Positions 3,237 through 31,198 of a DNA stretch of 31,198 bases are shown in pieces (position 1 is the stretch's first letter; each line of letters starts with the position of its first letter). The stretch is from assembly GCA_965649295.1 (NCBI GenBank), contig CBFGKH010000014.1:1-31198 (forward strand). Reading direction: 5' to 3'. The DNA is from a candidate division WOR-3 bacterium. Lineage in GTDB: Bacteria > Hydrothermota > Tepidihabitantia > Tepidihabitantales > Tepidihabitantaceae. Below the pieces are notes generated by a model. It worked only from the letters and a program-made list of their open reading frames with translations, did not search any database and was not told where the DNA came from. The translations under genes and the position numbers were made by a program.

Positions 3237-3995
3237 CTATATCTCCTTTTGCAATGCCTGCTGCAGGTTATAACGAAGCTGAGACGGTGTCAGATTGACC
3301 AGCAAACGTCCCCGGTTGGCAAAGCTGATTCGGCCCGTTGTTTCCGAAACAATCACCGCCACCGCATCAGTGACACCGGTAATGCCCAATCCAGCCCGAT
3401 GCCGCATGCCTAGCGGCCCCTCGATATTACGCACGTCCGACAATGGCAAAGTGCAGCCTGCCGCCATCACCTGACTGCCGACAACAATCACCGCGCCGTC
3501 GTGCAGCGGCGCCGGTGGCGTGAATAGCGACGAAAGCAGGGCCGCCGAAACCCGAGCGTCCAGTCGCGTACCGGTCTCAATAAAATCACGCAGACCGACA
3601 TCTCGTTCAACCACGATAAGAGCACCAACCCGCCGGTCGCGCAGTTGAGCTGCAGCATCTACAATCTCATCAATCGCCCGGGCTCTTGCCTCCTGCTTCA
3701 AGAGAAACCGTAAGGGACGGTACCGACCAAACAACGAGAGCAAGTTGCGGATTTCCGGCTGAAAGATAATTACAAATGCAACAATCCAGATCGTGGTTAG
3801 TGAGGTAACGATCAAACCCAGCGCCTTGAAATCAAGCCAGCGGGCGACAAACGAAACTGCACCCAAGAGGAGCAGCGCATATAGCATCCGAATGGCTCGC
3901 GTTCCCTTGAGAAAACGCAGAAAATAATATGCCAGCAGCGCCACCAGCAGAACATCAACCACGTCGAGAAACCTAAACCGCAGAAACGAGATCAA
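3237..3995 (-). CDS. cdaA: Diadenylate cyclase CdaA (membrane-bound c-di-AMP synthase)
   Basis: Three N-terminal TM helices, FQPEIR, catalytic LHDGA and RHRA motifs, VSETTG.IS. Confidence 0.95.
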   Translation of the reverse strand: MISFLRFRFLDVVDVLLVALLAYYFLRFLKGTRAIRMLYALLLLGAVSFVARWLDFKALGLIVTSLTTIWIVAFVIIFQPEIRNLLSLFGRYRPLRFLLKQEARARAIDEIVDAAAQLRDRRVGALIVVERDVGLRDFIETGTRLDARVSAALLSSLFTPPAPLHDGAVIVVGSQVMAAGCTLPLSDVRNIEGPLGMRHRAGLGITGVTDAVAVIVSETTGRISFANRGRLLVNLTPSQLRYNLQQALQKEI

Positions 3996-20740: not shown

Positions 20741-20830
20741 TGGCGGAGAGAGAGGGATTTGAACCCCCGATACCCTTACGGGTATACGTGATTTCGAGTC
20801 ACGCGCCATCGTCCACTCGGCCATCTCTCC
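20741..20830 (-). tRNA. tRNA-Ser(CGA), CCA encoded
   Basis: GGAGAGA acceptor stem, CGTGA-CT-CGA-AA-TCACG anticodon arm, long variable arm, GTTCAAATC T-loop, ends GCCA. Confidence 0.97.
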
Positions 20831-21304: not shown

Positions 21305-21378
21305 CGCGCCCGGCGCGACTCGAACGCGCAACCTACGGATTCGTAGTCCGGCACTCTATCCAATTGAGCTACGGGCGC
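21305..21378 (-). tRNA. tRNA-Arg(ACG), no encoded CCA
   Basis: GCGCCCG/CGGGCGC acceptor stem, AGCTCAATTGGATAGAG D-arm, CT-ACG-AA anticodon loop, GTTCGAGTC T-loop. Confidence 0.96.
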
Positions 21379-21925: not shown

Positions 21926-23566
21926 CTAGAGGTCGCGCCGCCGGGCACGCCAGCGCCGCACCACCCGATCAACATCCATCTCGTGAATACCGGCGGTCCA
22001 CCACTTCGCATACTGCACATCGGCACTCTCTGGTTTGGGATTGGGGCAGTCAATCAAGACCCGGGTCGGCAAAGCCACCGCATCACCCAGAAGCAGCGCC
22101 TCACCGGTTCGCAGTGCCGGCAGCATTGCCAAGAGCCCGGCCAACGAATCCGGCACGAGCCGGCGCACATAGTCCTGGTCATCCGGATTGGTCAGCCGCA
22201 TCGCCACAAAGTTGTTACACTGCGACAAGACCGTTTCCGAAAGCTCCTTTGGCCGCTGTGACACAATCACCGTACCGATGCCATACTTTCGGCCCTCCTT
22301 CATTATCCGCTCAATCGCGGTTCGGGCTGCCGAAAAGCGAGCATCCTGCCGGTTCGGCACATAATTGTGCGCCTCCTCCAGCACCAACAGCACCGGAAAC
22401 CGGTCCCGCTCCGGATTCCAGAGATTGAACTCAAACACCATCCGCGAGACAACCGCCACCACCACCCCGACCGCCTCTGACGGCACGCCCGACAGGTCAA
22501 TAATCGCCATTTTCTTACCGGTATTGATTGAAAGATAGTCCCGCAGCAACTGGCCCAGACTGTCATTGTCGGCATAGCGCTCGGGCGCAAACATAAACCG
22601 ATACCGCGGGTCACTCACCTTCGAATCAAACCGAATCAGAAACCGGTCAAACGCGCCGTAAAGCGGCCCTGGCTCCAGCTCGCCCTTTGCATTCGGCACC
22701 ATCTGAATATTCCACGACCGAATCTGACCCAAAAGGTCCTCAAGACTGAACCAGACCGGCGAATCCGCGGTCACCCTCGCCCCCTTGCGCAGATTAGCCT
22801 CGCCCACCGTGCCCTCTCGCGCCCGCAACAAGGCATCACGCAGCACCGTCACCTGATTGCGAGCAGTAGCCTCGCTCATATCAATCGTCAGGTCCTGAAA
22901 CTCCTCAAAGTTCATCACCCAATACGGCATCTCCACTTTATCCGGATGCACGAACAAAACATCGTCCTCGGCAAACGCCGCTGCATACTCACCGTGCAAG
23001 TCGAGCACTACGATATGCGTATCCGGATACTTCCGCACCGCCTGTTGCAACATCGAGACCACGGCACACGACTTGCCGCAACCGGTCGTGCCCAGCACCG
23101 CCACATGCTGACCAAAGAAACGGTCAATGTTCACAAACGCTCGCTCATTCGGCGCCTGTGACGGCCGCCCAAAAGAATAACCGTATTCGTGAAACTCCGA
23201 GAAGATGTGCGACAGCTCAGCCACAGCCACCATCTGCGCCGGCTGGCCCACATTCGGATAGACCGCTACTCCCCGTTCAAACTTGCCCTGCTCTGACAGC
23301 GTCCCTATCAAAATGCAGTCGGCAATCCGGCGACAGGCCGCATCCGGCCCAGCACTGCCCAGCAAGGGCCGACCGCACTCCATCCGCACGCTCGCCACAA
23401 TGCCAATAACACTGTGGTCTGCAAAAGGAATCTTCAGATGCGAACCGGGCTGGCCCGGATAATAATCTGCTGCCAGCGGCTGTGTTGGGTCAGCGGTCAG
23501 CTCAACTAGCGCCCGCTCACCACTCACCTCAACAACATAACCAATATCAGTATCAAGACGATGCAT
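21926..23566 (-). CDS. HerA-like (DUF87 / HerA-FtsK superfamily) ATPase with N-terminal beta-barrel
   Basis: H.AVLGTTGCGKS Walker A, DLHGEY, LVLEEAHNY Walker B, EGRKYG, VSQRP.EL..TVLSQC and RLTN..DQ motifs; GAAGGAG RBS. Confidence 0.9.
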   Translation of the reverse strand: MHRLDTDIGYVVEVSGERALVELTADPTQPLAADYYPGQPGSHLKIPFADHSVIGIVASVRMECGRPLLGSAGPDAACRRIADCILIGTLSEQGKFERGVAVYPNVGQPAQMVAVAELSHIFSEFHEYGYSFGRPSQAPNERAFVNIDRFFGQHVAVLGTTGCGKSCAVVSMLQQAVRKYPDTHIVVLDLHGEYAAAFAEDDVLFVHPDKVEMPYWVMNFEEFQDLTIDMSEATARNQVTVLRDALLRAREGTVGEANLRKGARVTADSPVWFSLEDLLGQIRSWNIQMVPNAKGELEPGPLYGAFDRFLIRFDSKVSDPRYRFMFAPERYADNDSLGQLLRDYLSINTGKKMAIIDLSGVPSEAVGVVVAVVSRMVFEFNLWNPERDRFPVLLVLEEAHNYVPNRQDARFSAARTAIERIMKEGRKYGIGTVIVSQRPKELSETVLSQCNNFVAMRLTNPDDQDYVRRLVPDSLAGLLAMLPALRTGEALLLGDAVALPTRVLIDCPNPKPESADVQYAKWWTAGIHEMDVDRVVRRWRARRRDL

Positions 23567-24304: not shown

Positions 24305-24976
24305 CTAGTCAGTCAGAACAATCTTGGCTGTCGCCCGGTCTGTACCTGCCACCAGCCGCACAAGATAAATCCCTGTCGCCAACCGCTGGCCGCGACTGTT
24401 CCTGCCGTCCCAGACAAGCAAGTGTTCACCTGCCGGCAACACGCCGTCGGCAAGGACCCGCACAAGCGTGCCGGTGCCGTCATAAACCTCAAGTCGGGAC
24501 TGGGCCTCACGTCCAAGCCTCGCTTGCAGTCCGACCTGACCGAAGGCAATCGGCCAAACCCGCAGTCCAACACTGACGCGGGTCTCAGCCGACTGGGCCT
24601 CGCTCGTACCAACGGTTACCAACCGAAACTTGACCATCGGAATCGTTGGCGCCAGGTCGGGCAGCTCATACCACGAATCCTCAACCGGCGGGTCAATGTT
24701 CAGGTCAAACTCCTGTGCCCGGTCAACCGTTCCGAACACCCGTAGCCGCATCGGCCATTCTTGAACGCGCTCGAAGTCGAACGTATCGTACTCCATCGAA
24801 TCGGCACCCCAGCCACGGGTGACGTAGAAATGGACACCACCGCCAACAAAAACGGCAACACTGTCAACATCCACGCGATAGCTGCCGCTGGCAAGCACAC
24901 CCTGCATGAAGCGGTTCTGCGCCGGGCACAAACCGGCTAGCAGCAACAATATAGATAGCACTGATACTAAGCGCAC
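24305..24976 (-). CDS. Small secreted protein with FlgD-Ig/T9SS-like C-terminal domain
   Basis: Signal peptide; C-terminal VYD..G.LVR.L....AG.H...WDG.N..G..LA.G.Y.VRL...K.VL; AAGGGAG RBS. Confidence 0.85.
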   Translation of the reverse strand: MRLVSVLSILLLLAGLCPAQNRFMQGVLASGSYRVDVDSVAVFVGGGVHFYVTRGWGADSMEYDTFDFERVQEWPMRLRVFGTVDRAQEFDLNIDPPVEDSWYELPDLAPTIPMVKFRLVTVGTSEAQSAETRVSVGLRVWPIAFGQVGLQARLGREAQSRLEVYDGTGTLVRVLADGVLPAGEHLLVWDGRNSRGQRLATGIYLVRLVAGTDRATAKIVLTD

Positions 24977-25068: not shown

Positions 25069-25149
25069 GTAATCCCGACCAAGCGAGTCCTCACCACTTT
25101 CTGTCATCCCGACCGGAGCGGAACGAAGTGGAGCGAAGTGGAGGGATCT
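25069..25149 (+). repeat. REP-like element(s) (GTCATCCCGACCGGAGCG...GTGGAGGGATCT) with a partial upstream copy
   Basis: GTAATCCCGACCAAGCG at 25069 and GTCATCCCGACCGGAGCG at 25103; CGAAGTGGAG occurs twice in tandem. Confidence 0.5.
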
Positions 25150-25264
25150 TCTCCCTCTCATCCCGCGCCCAGCGATTCCTCGTCGCCCGACTCCTCCGGC
25201 TGGCAGGGACAAGCGCCTTCCCCGGCCCTTTCCGGCCCCAATCACCAGCCCTTCATTTTCCCTA

Positions 25265-25292
25265 TTGACACCACATATAGGGGGTTTATACT
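25265..25292 (+). promoter_or_regulatory. Near-consensus sigma70 promoter of the giant surface protein gene
   Basis: TTGACA-16 bp-TATACT. Confidence 0.75.
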
Positions 25293-25298
25293 GAAATC

Positions 25299-25524
25299 GC
25301 CGAACCGGGTTACCGGCAGAACCCGTCATAAGCACAATCTGGACGGTAAAGACACCTGCGCTCATACCGGGTGCGGTGTTCCTGCCGTAATCCGGACCGG
25401 CCTCGGTTGCTGCCGGTTTGGGCAGGCAGTAACCGGTACGAGTTGGAAGGAAAACGGTCTCCCGCGCAACGGCGGGCCGGGAGACTGCCGCACAACCGCC
25501 GGAAAGCAGTTCAAGGAGGCAAAA
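25299..25524 (+). ncRNA. Candidate structured 5' leader / cis-regulatory RNA (unassigned family)
   Basis: Three-way junction (25305..25395) plus hairpins at 25397..25446 and 25455..25487, between the promoter and the AAGGAGG RBS. Confidence 0.55.
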
Positions 25525-28500
25525 ATGAGAAGACGTGTGACAGCTCTGCTACTCATCCTCGGAGTAGCGGCAGCGGCACTGGCCTCACCGGAACGGGTCG
25601 AACCGACAACTCAGTTCCTAGGCTTGATGCCGGGTGCTGAGTCGAAGTTCGAGCTGGATGCCACATGGCAAAACAGCCCAATCTACAGCCCCACCGGTGG
25701 AGCCACGCTGCGCGACATGGTGGTCGCGAGCAAGATCAAGGGGCCGAACGATGACACGTCCCGTGTCATTGTCGTCCAGTCCGCTTCCCCGCGCAATGTC
25801 TTGATGTACACCGACATTGCCCTGAGCGGACCGCCGGTGTGGCGCGAGGACATCATCTACACTGAACCATCAGTCGGTGGCCACGGCCTCGCGGTCGGCG
25901 ACGTTGACGGCGACAACCAGAATGAAATCGTCTGGGGCCAGACCGTCAACGCCTCAGTCGCGCCGGCCCTTCGAATGGCGAAGTGGAACGGCAGCACTTT
26001 CTCGGTCTCGACTATCTACACCCACACGGCGGTCAACTTCTACATTGCCGACATAGCTATCGGCGATGCCGACAATGTTCCCGGCAACAACCTGGACATC
26101 ATCTTCGCCATCGGTGCCGCATCCGCGACCGGAACCGGTCAGATCCGCCGCGCCGTCTGGACCGGCAGCACGTGGTCGAACACGCTTGTCTATTCAACAC
26201 CCTACTCAGTCTATGGCGTTGCCATCGGTGACGTGGACAAGATATACCCGGGCAACGAGGTCATCGGCGTCACTCCGGGCGCAGCAACCAGCGTCAGCCT
26301 CTACCGCTCATGGTGGAACCCGGCCACGTCCACGTGGGTGAACAGCGCGCTCACCTGGTCGTTGAACAACCTCGACTTCTACGACTGCGCCATCGGCGAT
26401 GTGGACCCGAACCAGCCCGGCGATGAATTGGTCGTCAACGTCACCGGCTCGCTGGTAACGACCTACGGCTCTATCGCCATGATTTACACTAGCCCGGGTG
26501 GAGTCTGGTCGTACGTTGGTCTCTATGCTCCGGCCGCGACTACTGACTGGGGCGCATTTGGTGAGATTGCAGTCGGCGACTTCAACGGCGACAAGATTGG
26601 CCAGGAGATTATTGCCACTCCCGGCGACGTTTCCGGCCGAGCGGTCCGAATGGTACGACTTGTTGACAACCAGCCCTCGCCGTGGGTGGTCAACGAGGCT
26701 GTTTACACGCCGACTGGCACCAACTACGGCGTAGCCATCGGCGATGTCAACAAGTGGCGTGGCTACAACGCCGAGCTCGTCACCGGCAACCTCACCGACC
26801 TGCGGCTGGTCGAGCAGGTCCTGCCTGCCGACAATGACGTTGGCGTGATGGGATTCTGGGTGAAGAGCTACACGGCGGTTGTTGGCGTGCCGCAGACATT
26901 CGTGGTCCGCATTGGCAACTACAGCACCAACCCAATCAGCAACATCCCGGTGTACTACGACGTCGGTTCCGGCCCGGTCACGGAAACCTACACCGGTACG
27001 ATTCAGCCCAACTCCTTCTTTGATTACGAGTTCACCCCGGCCAGCAACTGGACCCCGGCTGCTACCGGTGCTCCGACCGTCACTGTCGGCGTAAACCTCA
27101 CCGGCGACCCGGTTGCAGCGAACAACACGATGTCCGAGGTCGTGCCCGTCTTCGTTTCCGGTACGGTCGTTGGCCAGCTCTTCAACACCTACTACTTCCC
27201 GCGCGGCTGGTCACATCGGAACCTGGTGATTCCGCCCGGTAACTATCCGGTCTTTAGCTGGGAACACAACATCGCCGCCGCGGCAACGACCTCTCCACCC
27301 GCGACCACGCTCGAAGGCAACATGATGCGGTTCCGCTCCTACAACTTCCCGAGCGGCTACGAGGCCGAACTGAAACTGCCGACTTTCAACACCGGTCCAT
27401 CACCCCAAAAAGTGATGCTCAAGTTCTACCAGTACACCTACAACATCGGCAACGACAGCATCTGGATTGACTGGTCAACCGACGGCATCAACTTCACCCC
27501 GGCCGTGGGCCTGCCCAACAACACGGGTGTGACGGCCTGGACCGCTCGGACAGTTGATGTCCGCGACTTCCCGGCAAACCGCGACGTCACGCTGCGCCTG
27601 CGCGGTGTGAGCCGTTTCGGCTACAACATGTACATTGACTCGCTGCGCTGCTACCTCGACGTACCCACGAGCCCGATGAACGACGTCGGCGTAACGCAGG
27701 TTTCGGTTCCCACGCCATTCACCATCGCTGTCGGCGCTAATGCCTACCCGCGGGTGAGAATTCAGAACTTCGGTCTCGCCCCGCAGACTTCGATTCCGAT
27801 TACGTTCACTCAGGGCACGTCGGTCGTCAACTACACTTGGACCGGCATACTGCCGGATGGTGCGTTTGTTGACGTTGACTTCCCGACACCATGGGTTCCG
27901 ACCACCGACGGCCAGTTGCCAATCAGCGCTACAACCAACCTGCCTGGTGACGCCAACCCGGCCAACGATGCTGCTAGCGGCACAGCCGATGTCTTTGTCG
28001 CCGGCACCGTTGTCGGCCAGCTCTTCAACGCCACGGCCTTCCCGCCACCCGGCTGGAGTCAGGTGCTGATTGCGCCGGCGACGCTCGGCTGGAGCCGGGT
28101 TACGACAACCTCCTATCCGTCCGGCTACAACCCGCTCGAAGGCGCCGGGATGACACGGTATCCCTGCTACAGCGTGAGCTCTGGCGGTGCCCGCCTCATC
28201 TCCCATCCGTTCACGCTCACTGCTGGTCAGGACGTCAATACCGACTACTGGATTCTCCACAGCACGTACTACGACTATCCCGACTCGCTCTATCTTGAAT
28301 ACACTATTGACGGCGGTGCTACCTGGATCAAGTTCGACAGTATCCGACCATACAACGCGAGCTATCCAACCCCAACCTGGGTCAAGTACAGCAAGCTGAT
28401 CGGCACCTTTGGCCCGGGCACCACGATGCAGATTGGCTACCGCGCTCGCAGCGCTTGGTGGCTCGACATCTACCTCGACTCGCTCCGCACCTATGTGACG

Positions 28501-31198
28501 CCGCCGACTGCTCCCATCACCGACATCGGTGTCCAGAACATCACCCCGTTCCCGAACCCGATGTTCACCGGTACGCCCTACCCGGTCACCGTCATGCTGC
28601 GCAACTATGGGGTCACGCCAATCCCCAATCCGCAGGTGACCTACGACCCGGGTGATGGTTCAGCGTCGGTTACCGAGGTCTTCCCCGGCACGTTGCCGCC
28701 GCTGACGATGAACATCCCATTCACATTCACGACGCCTTACACACCGACGACCGCGGGCGGCCCGTACACCTTCAAGGCCTACACCAGCCTGCCCGGTGAC
28801 CAGAACCTCGCTAACGATACGTCCTCGCGCTCAATCACGGTCTGCCCGTTCGCCCACACCGTCCCCTACACCAAGGACTTCGACGAAGCCTGGACCAACT
28901 CGACCAACCCGCCGTTCTGCGGCTGGACCATCATTGACGGTGGCTCCCAGTCACCACCGGTCGTGGACAACAACGACTGGCACATGTACCTCGACGCCAC
29001 CAAAGGAAGTCAGGTCGCCCGTATCTACTACTCGCCAACTGAATGGTCGGATGACTGGCTCATATCCCCGCGTCTTGACTGCTCAGCTCCGCTCCAGTAC
29101 ACCCTGAGCTTCTATAACTACTACTACGATTACAGCTCGTCGTCCATGGACTCCGGCGACGTGATTATCTCGCTCGACGGCGGTGCCACCTTCCCGCTCG
29201 CCAACCGCGTTGCTCACTACTCCAACACCACGGTTCCGCGCGGCGTTCAGACCTATGACATCACCAACATTGTCGCCGGCCAGAATAACGTCAAGGTCGG
29301 CTTCCACTATGTCGCCTACGACGAGTGGTACTGGCTCATTGACGACTTCTCGGTCACGGCAGTGCCGTTCGCACCGGTTCTTACCGGCCCGGCCAATGGC
29401 AGTGCCATCAATGTCCAGCCGACCTTCACCTGGAACGCTTCGGCCGGCGCGAACCTCTACAAGATCGAAATCTCGACCGACGGCGTAACTTGGCCAATCT
29501 TCGACATCACTGCTAACACTTCCTACAACTACTGGGACGTCCTTGCTGACGGCACCTACTACTGGCGCGTCTCAGCCTCGGCTGACAACGGCACGACTTG
29601 GGGCTCGGCCTCGACAGTCTGGTCGTTTGACCTCGACACCGAAGTACCGGGTGCAGCCACACTGCTCACCCCTGCCAACGGTGCCACCGACGTCAGCCTG
29701 CGGCCAGAGTTCACCTGGACCGAGGTTACCTTTGCCAAGACGAAGAAAGCTGAACTCGGCAATGCGCAGTCGCTCGATGCCACGCCGGTGACCTACCGCC
29801 TGCAGGTTGCCACGAGTCCAGACTTCAGTGATCCTTACATTGATGCCCTCGGCCTCACCGACGAAACCTACACCCCTAGCTTCGACCTCGACTACGTCAC
29901 CGAGTACTTCTGGCGTGTTCAGGCCTCGGACGCAGTCAATACTGGCCCGTGGAGCTCCGTCTTCAGCTTCACGACCATCCCGACCGCTGCTCCGACCCTG
30001 ATTGAGCCGATTGATGGCGCTCAGCTCACCAGTGACGAAGTTCACTTTGAGTGGAACGCTTCGACTGGTGCGAACTACTACTGGCTCCAGGTCGCTACCG
30101 ACGCTGGTTTCAACGACCTCGTAATTGACGAGGACGGCATTGACGACCTCTTCTACGACGACTTCTTCGATGATGGCGTTTACTACTGGCGTGTCGCTTC
30201 GTCGCCCAACGACGAAGACTACGGCCCGTGGTCGGCGGTCTGGACCTTTGAGGTTGATGCCAATGCTCCTGTGGCACCGGTGCTGGTCACGCCCGCACCC
30301 AATGCCACCGACGTCCCGATTGACGTGACGTTCGACTGGGAGCCGGTCACCCTCAAGGCCCGTAAGAACCTCGCCGCCAAGAAGGGTCTTGGCACCGACT
30401 CGCCGATTGAGGAATACCACCTCGTCGTCTCCCCCAATCCCGACTACTCTGACCCGATCTACGACGTCGCAATCCTCGGCACCGAGACCGAGTTTGCCCA
30501 GCCCGGTCCCACCTACCTGAACTACCTGACTCGCTACTACTGGAAGGTCTGGGCAGTTGACGCCTTCGGTAACGTCGGCGACCCGGCCGAGGCCACGTTC
30601 ATGACCGCCGAAGAGGCCCCGGCTGCCTTCAATCTGCTCACTCCGCCCAACAACGCGACTGGTGTGGCAACGAGTGGCAACCTGACCTGGGAGCCGGCTG
30701 CTCGCGCTGTCAACTACGACGTCTATCTCAGCAAGACCAACCCGCCGACCTTGTATCAGGCCAATGTGACTGGCACCAGCCTGGCCTACACTGGCCTTGA
30801 CAACAGCTCGGTTTACTACTGGCAGGTCGTGGCCAAGAATGCCGGCGGCAACACGCCTTCGGCAGTCTGGCAGTTCACGACTACCTCCGGAATGCCGGGT
30901 GGTTGGTATGCTCGCCGCGACTCAATGACCGGTGGCCCGGTCCGTGACGGCGGCGGCATCACCTACAACGCCGACAAAGGCTTGATGTATGCCATCAAGG
31001 GCGGCAAGACGAATGAGTTCTGGCAGTACAACCCGGTCGAGACGACCTGGACCAAGCTCACTGACGTCACCGCTGGCACCAAGCCGGTCAACAAAGGCGC
31101 AGCCATCACCACCGGCGGCGGGTTCGTCTATGTGCTGAAGGGCAACAACACCTACGACTTCTACAAGTACGACATCGAGGCTGGGACCTGGGCTGCCT
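25525..31198 (+). CDS. Giant (>1,890 aa) secreted surface protein/adhesin, truncated by the right edge; not in ORF track
   Basis: AAGGAGG + ATG, open to the window end. Signal peptide MRRRVTALLLILGVAAAALA; FG-GAP-like repeats (A.GD.D...E; ~25660-26815); 3x [CARDB-like + cleaved-adhesin/MAM-like] (~26830-29360); 5 FN3-like domains (AP.L..P.NG..W..Y..YYWRV; ~29370-30890); Kelch-like repeats (Y..KG..T..F..Y.....W) from ~30900. Strong C-ending codon bias. Confidence 0.93.
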   Translation, partial: MRRRVTALLLILGVAAAALASPERVEPTTQFLGLMPGAESKFELDATWQNSPIYSPTGGATLRDMVVASKIKGPNDDTSRVIVVQSASPRNVLMYTDIALSGPPVWREDIIYTEPSVGGHGLAVGDVDGDNQNEIVWGQTVNASVAPALRMAKWNGSTFSVSTIYTHTAVNFYIADIAIGDADNVPGNNLDIIFAIGAASATGTGQIRRAVWTGSTWSNTLVYSTPYSVYGVAIGDVDKIYPGNEVIGVTPGAATSVSLYRSWWNPATSTWVNSALTWSLNNLDFYDCAIGDVDPNQPGDELVVNVTGSLVTTYGSIAMIYTSPGGVWSYVGLYAPAATTDWGAFGEIAVGDFNGDKIGQEIIATPGDVSGRAVRMVRLVDNQPSPWVVNEAVYTPTGTNYGVAIGDVNKWRGYNAELVTGNLTDLRLVEQVLPADNDVGVMGFWVKSYTAVVGVPQTFVVRIGNYSTNPISNIPVYYDVGSGPVTETYTGTIQPNSFFDYEFTPASNWTPAATGAPTVTVGVNLTGDPVAANNTMSEVVPVFVSGTVVGQLFNTYYFPRGWSHRNLVIPPGNYPVFSWEHNIAAAATTSPPATTLEGNMMRFRSYNFPSGYEAELKLPTFNTGPSPQKVMLKFYQYTYNIGNDSIWIDWSTDGINFTPAVGLPNNTGVTAWTARTVDVRDFPANRDVTLRLRGVSRFGYNMYIDSLRCYLDVPTSPMNDVGVTQVSVPTPFTIAVGANAYPRVRIQNFGLAPQTSIPITFTQGTSVVNYTWTGILPDGAFVDVDFPTPWVPTTDGQLPISATTNLPGDANPANDAASGTADVFVAGTVVGQLFNATAFPPPGWSQVLIAPATLGWSRVTTTSYPSGYNPLEGAGMTRYPCYSVSSGGARLISHPFTLTAGQDVNTDYWILHSTYYDYPDSLYLEYTIDGGATWIKFDSIRPYNASYPTPTWVKYSKLIGTFGPGTTMQIGYRARSAWWLDIYLDSLRTYVTPPTAPITDIGVQNITPFPNPMFTGTPYPVTVMLRNYGVTPIPNPQVTYDPGDGSASVTEVFPGTLPPLTMNIPFTFTTPYTPTTAGGPYTFKAYTSLPGDQNLANDTSSRSITVCPFAHTVPYTKDFDEAWTNSTNPPFCGWTIIDGGSQSPPVVDNNDWHMYLDATKGSQVARIYYSPTEWSDDWLISPRLDCSAPLQYTLSFYNYYYDYSSSSMDSGDVIISLDGGATFPLANRVAHYSNTTVPRGVQTYDITNIVAGQNNVKVGFHYVAYDEWYWLIDDFSVTAVPFAPVLTGPANGSAINVQPTFTWNASAGANLYKIEISTDGVTWPIFDITANTSYNYWDVLADGTYYWRVSASADNGTTWGSASTVWSFDLDTEVPGAATLLTPANGATDVSLRPEFTWTEVTFAKTKKAELGNAQSLDATPVTYRLQVATSPDFSDPYIDALGLTDETYTPSFDLDYVTEYFWRVQASDAVNTGPWSSVFSFTTIPTAAPTLIEPIDGAQLTSDEVHFEWNASTGANYYWLQVATDAGFNDLVIDEDGIDDLFYDDFFDDGVYYWRVASSPNDEDYGPWSAVWTFEVDANAPVAPVLVTPAPNATDVPIDVTFDWEPVTLKARKNLAAKKGLGTDSPIEEYHLVVSPNPDYSDPIYDVAILGTETEFAQPGPTYLNYLTRYYWKVWAVDAFGNVGDPAEATFMTAEEAPAAFNLLTPPNNATGVATSGNLTWEPAARAVNYDVYLSKTNPPTLYQANVTGTSLAYTGLDNSSVYYWQVVAKNAGGNTPSAVWQFTTTSGMPGGWYARRDSMTGGPVRDGGGITYNADKGLMYAIKGGKTNEFWQYNPVETTWTKLTDVTAGTKPVNKGAAITTGGGFVYVLKGNNTYDFYKYDIEAGTWAA

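Follow-up and report, generated by a model that had tools for sequence, protein, structure and literature searches.

The 5′-terminal stem-loops of the ompA and papA 5′ untranslated regions (UTRs) of E. coli and of the aprE leader of B. subtilis stabilize the mRNAs that carry them. Each consists of one small hairpin whose effect is proven; pairing at or near the 5′ end is followed by a strong and accessible ribosome site, and the genes concerned encode surface or secreted products. The primary papers on these elements are cited in PMC3997798. A different architecture is seen in the c-di-GMP-I riboswitch (GEMM-I, RF01051), which has a three-helix junction outline, can be placed before surface-protein genes, and is defined by a GNRA tetraloop that docks into a receptor on another helix; three-way junctions are common aptamer architectures in general. 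Long leaders are described for S-layer genes, and section 5 of PMC3666127 ascribes the long half-lives of S-layer mRNAs to long structured 5′ UTRs. In the slpA leaders of Lactobacillus acidophilus and L. crispatus, as covered in the same section, a strong promoter and a long folded leader precede the gene for an abundant secreted surface protein (PMC3666127).

The leader considered here (25299-25524, plus strand) lies in front of a gene for a giant secreted protein in an uncultured bacterial lineage. Its sequence is an orphan, and its type is a known one, the folded 5′ UTR in front of a gene for an abundant surface protein. By analogy with slpA, ompA and papA, it is read with moderate confidence as a lineage-specific, stabilizing and translation-friendly 5′ UTR of a strongly expressed gene.

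Locus, promoter and gene

The genome comprises 2.28 Mb in 19 contigs and is rated 100% complete, and the window, that is the whole 31,198-nt stretch that was analysed, corresponds to contig C14. Promoter and leader are held in a non-coding stretch of 548 nt between two divergent genes. The sigma-70-type promoter at 25265-25292 (plus strand) consists of a −35 hexamer TTGACA (25265-25270), a 16-nt spacer and a −10 hexamer TATACT (25287-25292). It matches the consensus at 11 of 12 positions and is the sole plus-strand site between 24900 and 25700, where shuffled sequences would lead one to expect 0.2. From the geometry of this promoter, transcription is predicted to start at G25299 (plus strand), 7 nt past the −10 hexamer. 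The start codon (ATG, 25525) is preceded at a distance of 5 nt by a Shine-Dalgarno sequence, AAGGAGG, at 25513-25519 (plus strand), and opens a gene at 25525-31197 (plus strand) that encodes at least 1891 amino acids of a secreted multi-domain protein and runs off the end of the contig. The N-terminus of the protein is a signal peptide (MRRRVTALLLILGVAAAALA), and the remainder gives weak Pfam matches to FG-GAP-like, MAM-like, fn3/Ig and Kelch domains. The initiating methionine is aligned in all eight of the eight homologues compared, and no Pfam match that would point to hidden coding is seen in the six ORFs lying over or ahead of the leader. Promoter, start codon and absence of hidden coding together mark the 226 nt from G25299, the predicted start, to the ATG as a 5′ untranslated leader.

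Upstream of the real start the reading frame of the giant gene has no stop for another 129 codons (25138-25524, plus strand), across promoter and leader, so automatic annotation could make the gene too long. On the other side of the non-coding stretch lies a gene for a FlgD-Ig-domain protein identified by Pfam (223 aa, 24305-24976, minus strand), served by a divergent promoter-like site at 25046-25019 (minus strand; TTGACC-16-TATGAT with an extended TG), and the two surface-related genes are thus transcribed back-to-back. The spacer upstream of the promoter contains imperfect repeat or palindrome words at 25102-25160 (plus strand; GGAGCG..GAAGTGGAGCGAAGTGGAGGGATC, then TCTCCCTC), and a 30-nt piece of it (25167-25196) recurs with 93% identity on contig C1 at 81295-81324. 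A link to the 12-nt phased arrays found elsewhere in the genome was rejected, since neither the leader (0.03) nor the spacer upstream of the promoter (−0.07 and −0.13) gives a signal of lag-12 periodicity. Farther upstream of the locus are a HerA/DUF87 ATPase gene (546 aa, 21926-23566, minus strand) and two tRNA genes at 20744-20830 and 21305-21378 (minus strand; 63.4 and 56.0 bits).

Fold of the leader

The helices of the leader were read from the minimum-free-energy fold of 25293-25524. The 5′ part, domain 1 (25299-25401, plus strand), is a three-way junction of 103 nt and 35 bp with a folding energy of −51 kcal/mol. It is closed by P0 (25299-25302/25398-25401, 4 bp), an extra helix absent from the first reading of this DNA, and the predicted +1 nucleotide is the first paired base of P0. 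P1 (25305-25313/25387-25395 and 25315-25319/25382-25386) has 14 bp and a single bulge at 25314. P2 (25323-25327/25342-25346, CCGUC/GACGG) carries a 14-nt loop (AUAAGCACAAUCUG), and P3 is formed by 25351-25356 and 25358-25363 pairing with 25369-25374 and 25375-25380 around a 5-nt loop, AUACC. The junction strands are short, with AAC in J1/2, UAAA in J2/3 and C in J3/1. Domain 1 is followed by hairpin 2 (25403-25417/25422-25436, plus strand), which has 14 pairs including three G-U pairs and whose 5′ arm holds CTGCCGGT (25410-25417). A purine-rich linker (25437-25454, plus strand) that holds GGAAGGAAAA and forms few, weak pairs in the minimum-free-energy fold leads to the GC-rich hairpin 3 (25455-25487, plus strand), in which 25455-25464/25478-25487 and two more pairs amount to 12 pairs. 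The weakly structured 3′ segment (25488-25524, plus strand) holds the Shine-Dalgarno sequence. P1, P2, P3 and the two further stems had all been named in the preliminary description, and each of them is reproduced by the fold where that description had placed it.

The probed helices of domain 1 have pair probabilities of 0.97-0.999 at 37 °C and of 0.74-0.90 at 75 °C, which indicates a single well-defined fold rather than a bistable one. Hairpin 2 has a pair probability of 0.99 at 37 °C, and the same domains are retained on folding at 60, 70 and 75 °C. The Shine-Dalgarno sequence is unpaired with a probability of 0.45 at 37 °C, which rises to 0.63 at 60 °C and to 0.71 at 75 °C, and the ribosome site, a strong one, is accordingly modelled as accessible and largely unpaired.

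The fold is significant, unusually stable and favours the sense strand. For the whole leader the sense strand gives z −3.48 with none of 200 shuffles as stable, against z −2.57 and 2 of 200 shuffles for the antisense strand; separate shuffle sets for 25299-25524 give z −4.34 (60 shuffles) and −3.37 (40 shuffles). The junction domain (25299-25401) reaches z −5.39 in sense and −3.45 in antisense orientation, in both cases with 0 of 200 shuffles, and hairpins 2 and 3 together reach z −3.68 (0 of 200) and −2.39 (5 of 200), respectively. As a background, 88 random 226-nt windows of the same genome have a mean z of −0.37 (sd 1.05, minimum −3.0), with none below −3.0, so the leader lies outside that distribution. 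A structured RNA had been proposed at this position from inspection of the letters, and the comparison agrees with it in that the leader is more stable than all 200 shuffles and all 88 genomic windows.

Expression and proposed stabilization of the message

The giant gene has a codon adaptation index (CAI) of 0.786, at the 96.7th percentile of 1443 ORFs, the top ranks including a pilin gene (0.841) and EF-Tu (0.843). The reference set consisted of genes which we take, from operon order and N-termini, to be those of ribosomal proteins and EF-Tu. Together with the 11/12 promoter, this suggests that the gene is highly expressed. Promoter sites that match the consensus at 11 or more of 12 positions and have an ORF downstream number 102 in the genome, and many of these ORFs begin with signal peptides. 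Among the signal-peptide genes with leaders of 40-320 nt (n = 25) the median leader length is 107 nt, and the leader at 25299-25524 is the second longest. Across 47 leaders of the genome, longer leaders go with higher CAI (Spearman 0.38, p 0.009). It also speaks for the stabilizing reading that nine of 22 hand-picked leaders of the genome have z below −2, and that several homologues in relatives combine a consensus promoter with a long leader, at times a strongly folded one, of unrelated sequence.

According to the preferred reading, transcription would start at about 25299 from the near-consensus promoter, and the first base of the message would enter the 103-nt three-way-junction domain, so that the 5′ end would become paired once P1 and P0 close. 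Two autonomous hairpins would follow, and then a weakly paired stretch that would present the strong Shine-Dalgarno sequence. A 5′ end that is buried, together with several stable hairpins that each fold by themselves, may slow 5′-end-dependent attack, of which the likely agent would be the RNase E/G of the genome. A gene for such an enzyme is present (RNase_E_G, PF10150, C4:102077-102886, E 1.4e-95); RNase Y was also found in the genome, and RNase J was looked for there and not found. The same hairpins may also prevent upstream sequence from pairing wrongly with the ribosome site, and a gene of more than 5.6 kb would in this way have a message that lasts long and is translated well. The preliminary description had offered an mRNA-stabilizing leader of a highly expressed surface gene as one of its options; promoter, open ribosome site, CAI and RNase E/G all fit this option, and the stabilizing effect is the part of it that is deduced from them.

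The likeness to the described systems is one of arrangement. With the slpA leaders the locus shares the strong promoter, the long folded leader and a secreted surface protein that would be abundant. It differs from them in having no sequence or structural homology, in its three-way junction and two hairpins, in belonging to a different, uncultured lineage, and in its product, which has several domains and 1891 aa or more, as against lattice proteins of 25-71 kDa; an effect on half-life is presumed here. With ompA, papA and aprE it shares pairing at or near the 5′ end (predicted in the present case), a strong accessible ribosome site downstream, a surface or secreted product and a host with an RNase E/G-type enzyme, whereas it has a 103-nt junction domain and a predicted 5′ end in place of a single small hairpin. 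Compared with those systems there is also no genome-wide excess of 5′ pairing: among the 47 leaders the 5′ end is paired in 28, which is no enrichment over the 49% seen in shuffles. What counts against a stabilizer is that a simple 5′ hairpin would do, and that a junction of 35 bp with two hairpins exceeds that need.

Possible alternatives: bound factors, chance and switching

An architecture more elaborate than end protection requires may be taken as a sign that something binds it. The binder would be a small RNA or a protein, such as a dedicated regulator or the surface protein, and by attaching to domain 1 or the hairpins it would tune translation or decay; the exposed purine-rich linker and the large 14-nt loop of P2 would offer it sites. 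Thermus slpA, which is autoregulated through its own 5′ UTR, counts as a precedent, and a literature search for this autoregulation gave no relevant paper. No candidate partner for such a role was found. CsrA binding at the GGA motifs of the linker was considered and rejected, the search for a CsrA gene having come up empty. A regulon would be marked by further copies of the RNA, but a covariance model built from domain 1 alone matched only itself in the genome, where the leader is unique. The relatives searched gave no homologue either: across 100 relatives the same model produced a single chance-level match (E 0.35), in 150 genomes of the phylum (partly overlapping those relatives) it had no match at E up to 0.1, and in 49 loci of protein homologues it gave two junk matches (E above 3). 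These negatives do not prove absence, a model from a single sequence having little reach. A blastn search with promoter and leader against 60 relatives returned short chance matches only, the best of them (32 nt, E 0.003, in relative G007) lying inside a Kelch-repeat coding region, and a search for the pattern of junction words found nothing in the genome-contig collection, from which the source genome had been left out. Regulation by a bound factor is rated as rather unlikely.

The same absence of relatives is what an incidental fold would produce, in which a GC-rich, fast-evolving UTR, perhaps through word repeats such as CCGGCAG/CTGCCGG, has acquired a structure that is not under selection. 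The relatives of the protein itself are distant. Its closest matches are a paralogue in the same genome (37% identity) and foreign genes of at most 39% identity; matches at E up to 1e-10 occur in 23 of 61 genomes, the source genome counted. A metagenome scan with the single protein found no relative, a scan with an alignment found 20 loci (best 38% identity), and no orthologue is on record in the collections of relatives and metagenomes searched. The paralogue, on contig C18, has its own promoter and an unrelated 151-nt leader with z −1.05 and no Rfam match, and the closest homologue within the family (G010, 39% identity) has a 305-nt leader without excess structure (z −0.16), so a structured leader is not a rule in this gene family. 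Homologue loci with a clear start number 21; 16 of them have a promoter that matches the consensus at 10 or more of 12 positions, and in two of the 16 it belongs to a tmRNA gene. In the other 14 promoter-bearing loci, z is −2 or lower for seven leaders and close to zero for the remaining seven. None of these 14 leaders resembles the one at 25299-25524, their sequences being unrelated.

The two tmRNA genes had appeared as leaders of 375 and 395 nt before homologues in two relatives and were discarded as such. They lie at L030 2670-3020 (minus strand) in G055 and L048 1059-1406 (plus strand) in G047, each with its own consensus promoter and directly 5′ of a homologue, of about 510 aa, of the N-terminal domain of the giant protein, with a five-tRNA cluster nearby. 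At a further locus (L047, G056:C219) a consensus promoter is followed by a strongly folded stretch of 341 nt (z −5.55) before the homologue, with an internal Shine-Dalgarno-ATG and no tRNA or tmRNA call.

Within the genome, too, fold strength does not follow expression proxies, with no correlation to CAI across the 47 leaders (rho −0.10, p 0.5), as might be anticipated of incidental folds. The mean z of these leaders is −0.89, and the leader at 25299-25524 ranks second. What speaks for selection is that the fold lies, at z −3.4 to −5.4, beyond all of the shuffles and genomic windows, that folding is stronger for the sense strand than for the antisense strand, and that the structure sets in precisely at the predicted +1 and does not engage the ribosome site. 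An incidental origin is on these grounds unlikely. Other leaders of the genome also stand out. Among the 22 hand-picked leaders the highest degree of structure, with z −6.06 for the sense and −4.64 for the antisense strand, is shown by a 138-nt leader on contig C16 (promoter 11745, plus strand) before a lipoprotein-like gene of 96 aa. Two paralogous lipoprotein genes on contig C6 (promoters 90553, minus strand, and 72138, plus strand) have leaders of about 200 nt that open with an identical 13 nt (GAGGCTGAGCTTC), and they are a better candidate for a conserved leader than the one at 25299-25524.

The three-way junction also brings to mind a ligand-sensing RNA, and the preliminary description had proposed a new riboswitch or a variant of a known one. 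It had pointed to a perfect pairing of ACCGGCAG (25312-25319) with CTGCCGGT, which would exclude both P1 and hairpin 2 and could form part of a switch with the junction as aptamer. The pairing does exist, as a perfect helix of 8 bp, and its role as a switch finds no backing. On its own such a helix is not significant: shuffles contain 0.42 perfect helices of at least 8 bp on average, and two or more, as observed in the leader, in 8% of cases. Forcing it raises the folding energy by 6.9 kcal/mol at 37 °C, by 5.2 at 60 °C and by 6.4 at 75 °C, and its equilibrium probability is 1e-5 to 2e-3. A state only 5-7 kcal/mol above the minimum is within reach of ligand-binding energies, but transcription reaches the 3′ half of P1 (25382-25395) ahead of the competitor at 25410-25417, so that P1 is complete before the alternative can form. 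The forced fold leaves hairpin 3 and the Shine-Dalgarno region unaltered. A terminator scan found no intrinsic terminator on the plus strand, there is no U-tract after any hairpin (hairpin 3 is therefore not a canonical intrinsic terminator), and no anti-Shine-Dalgarno word is seen in the leader. With neither a terminator nor Shine-Dalgarno sequestration, and with an alternative helix that has no output, no expression platform was found.

Searches for known families are equally silent. Over the whole window at the gathering score Rfam yields two tRNAs and nothing else, and for 25150-25600 at E up to 10 it yields four chance matches (F6, M23, mir-1910 and HOXA11-AS1_5) of 11-16 bits, against cut-offs of 41-70. 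No family is thus assigned to the leader, c-di-GMP-I included. RF01051 in particular has no match in the window (gathering score), in 25150-25600 (E up to 10) or in the whole genome (E up to 1). A loose echo of c-di-GMP-I words in the junction had been remarked upon at the outset, and the junction outline and the place before a surface-protein gene are further points of likeness, but the covariance model is silent, GNRA tetraloops are missing from both hairpins of the junction, an expression platform is lacking, and no GGDEF cyclase (PF00990) was found at E up to 0.001 in this genome, a search that gave matches in 8 of 14 reference genomes as a control. The case for a c-di-GMP riboswitch breaks down for the RNA as well as for the ligand, and this version is excluded.

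For other ligands the genome does offer one lead. A DAC (c-di-AMP synthase) domain at 3306-3659 (E 1.3e-38), in a 252-aa ORF at 3237-3995 (minus strand) of the same window, indicates that c-di-AMP is made, and c-di-GMP apparently is not, no GGDEF having been found. Domain 1 may conceivably be a genus-restricted aptamer for a small molecule such as c-di-AMP, or for a protein, that controls the giant protein by a non-canonical output, for example through access of RNase E/G or Rho. Such an output, if true, would involve neither a terminator nor Shine-Dalgarno sequestration, and the proposal is held to be quite improbable. A new ligand-sensing riboswitch in the usual sense, with the 8-bp pairing as part of its switch, is very improbable: beyond the missing Rfam match, platform and output, it would be present as a single copy in a single genome among the collections searched, and to our knowledge no validated riboswitch class has such a distribution.

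The chief value of the leader is a negative one, as a three-way junction that looks like a riboswitch and has an apparent switch helix proves to lack any testable hallmark of a riboswitch. It would matter more only if congeneric genomes showed covariation together with invariant junction bases. As a stabilizing leader it would be of use in annotating transcription units and in choosing expression signals, and it would establish no new principle. If that reading is true, the locus would be a further case, from an uncultured lineage, of abundant surface proteins that use a consensus promoter and a long folded leader.
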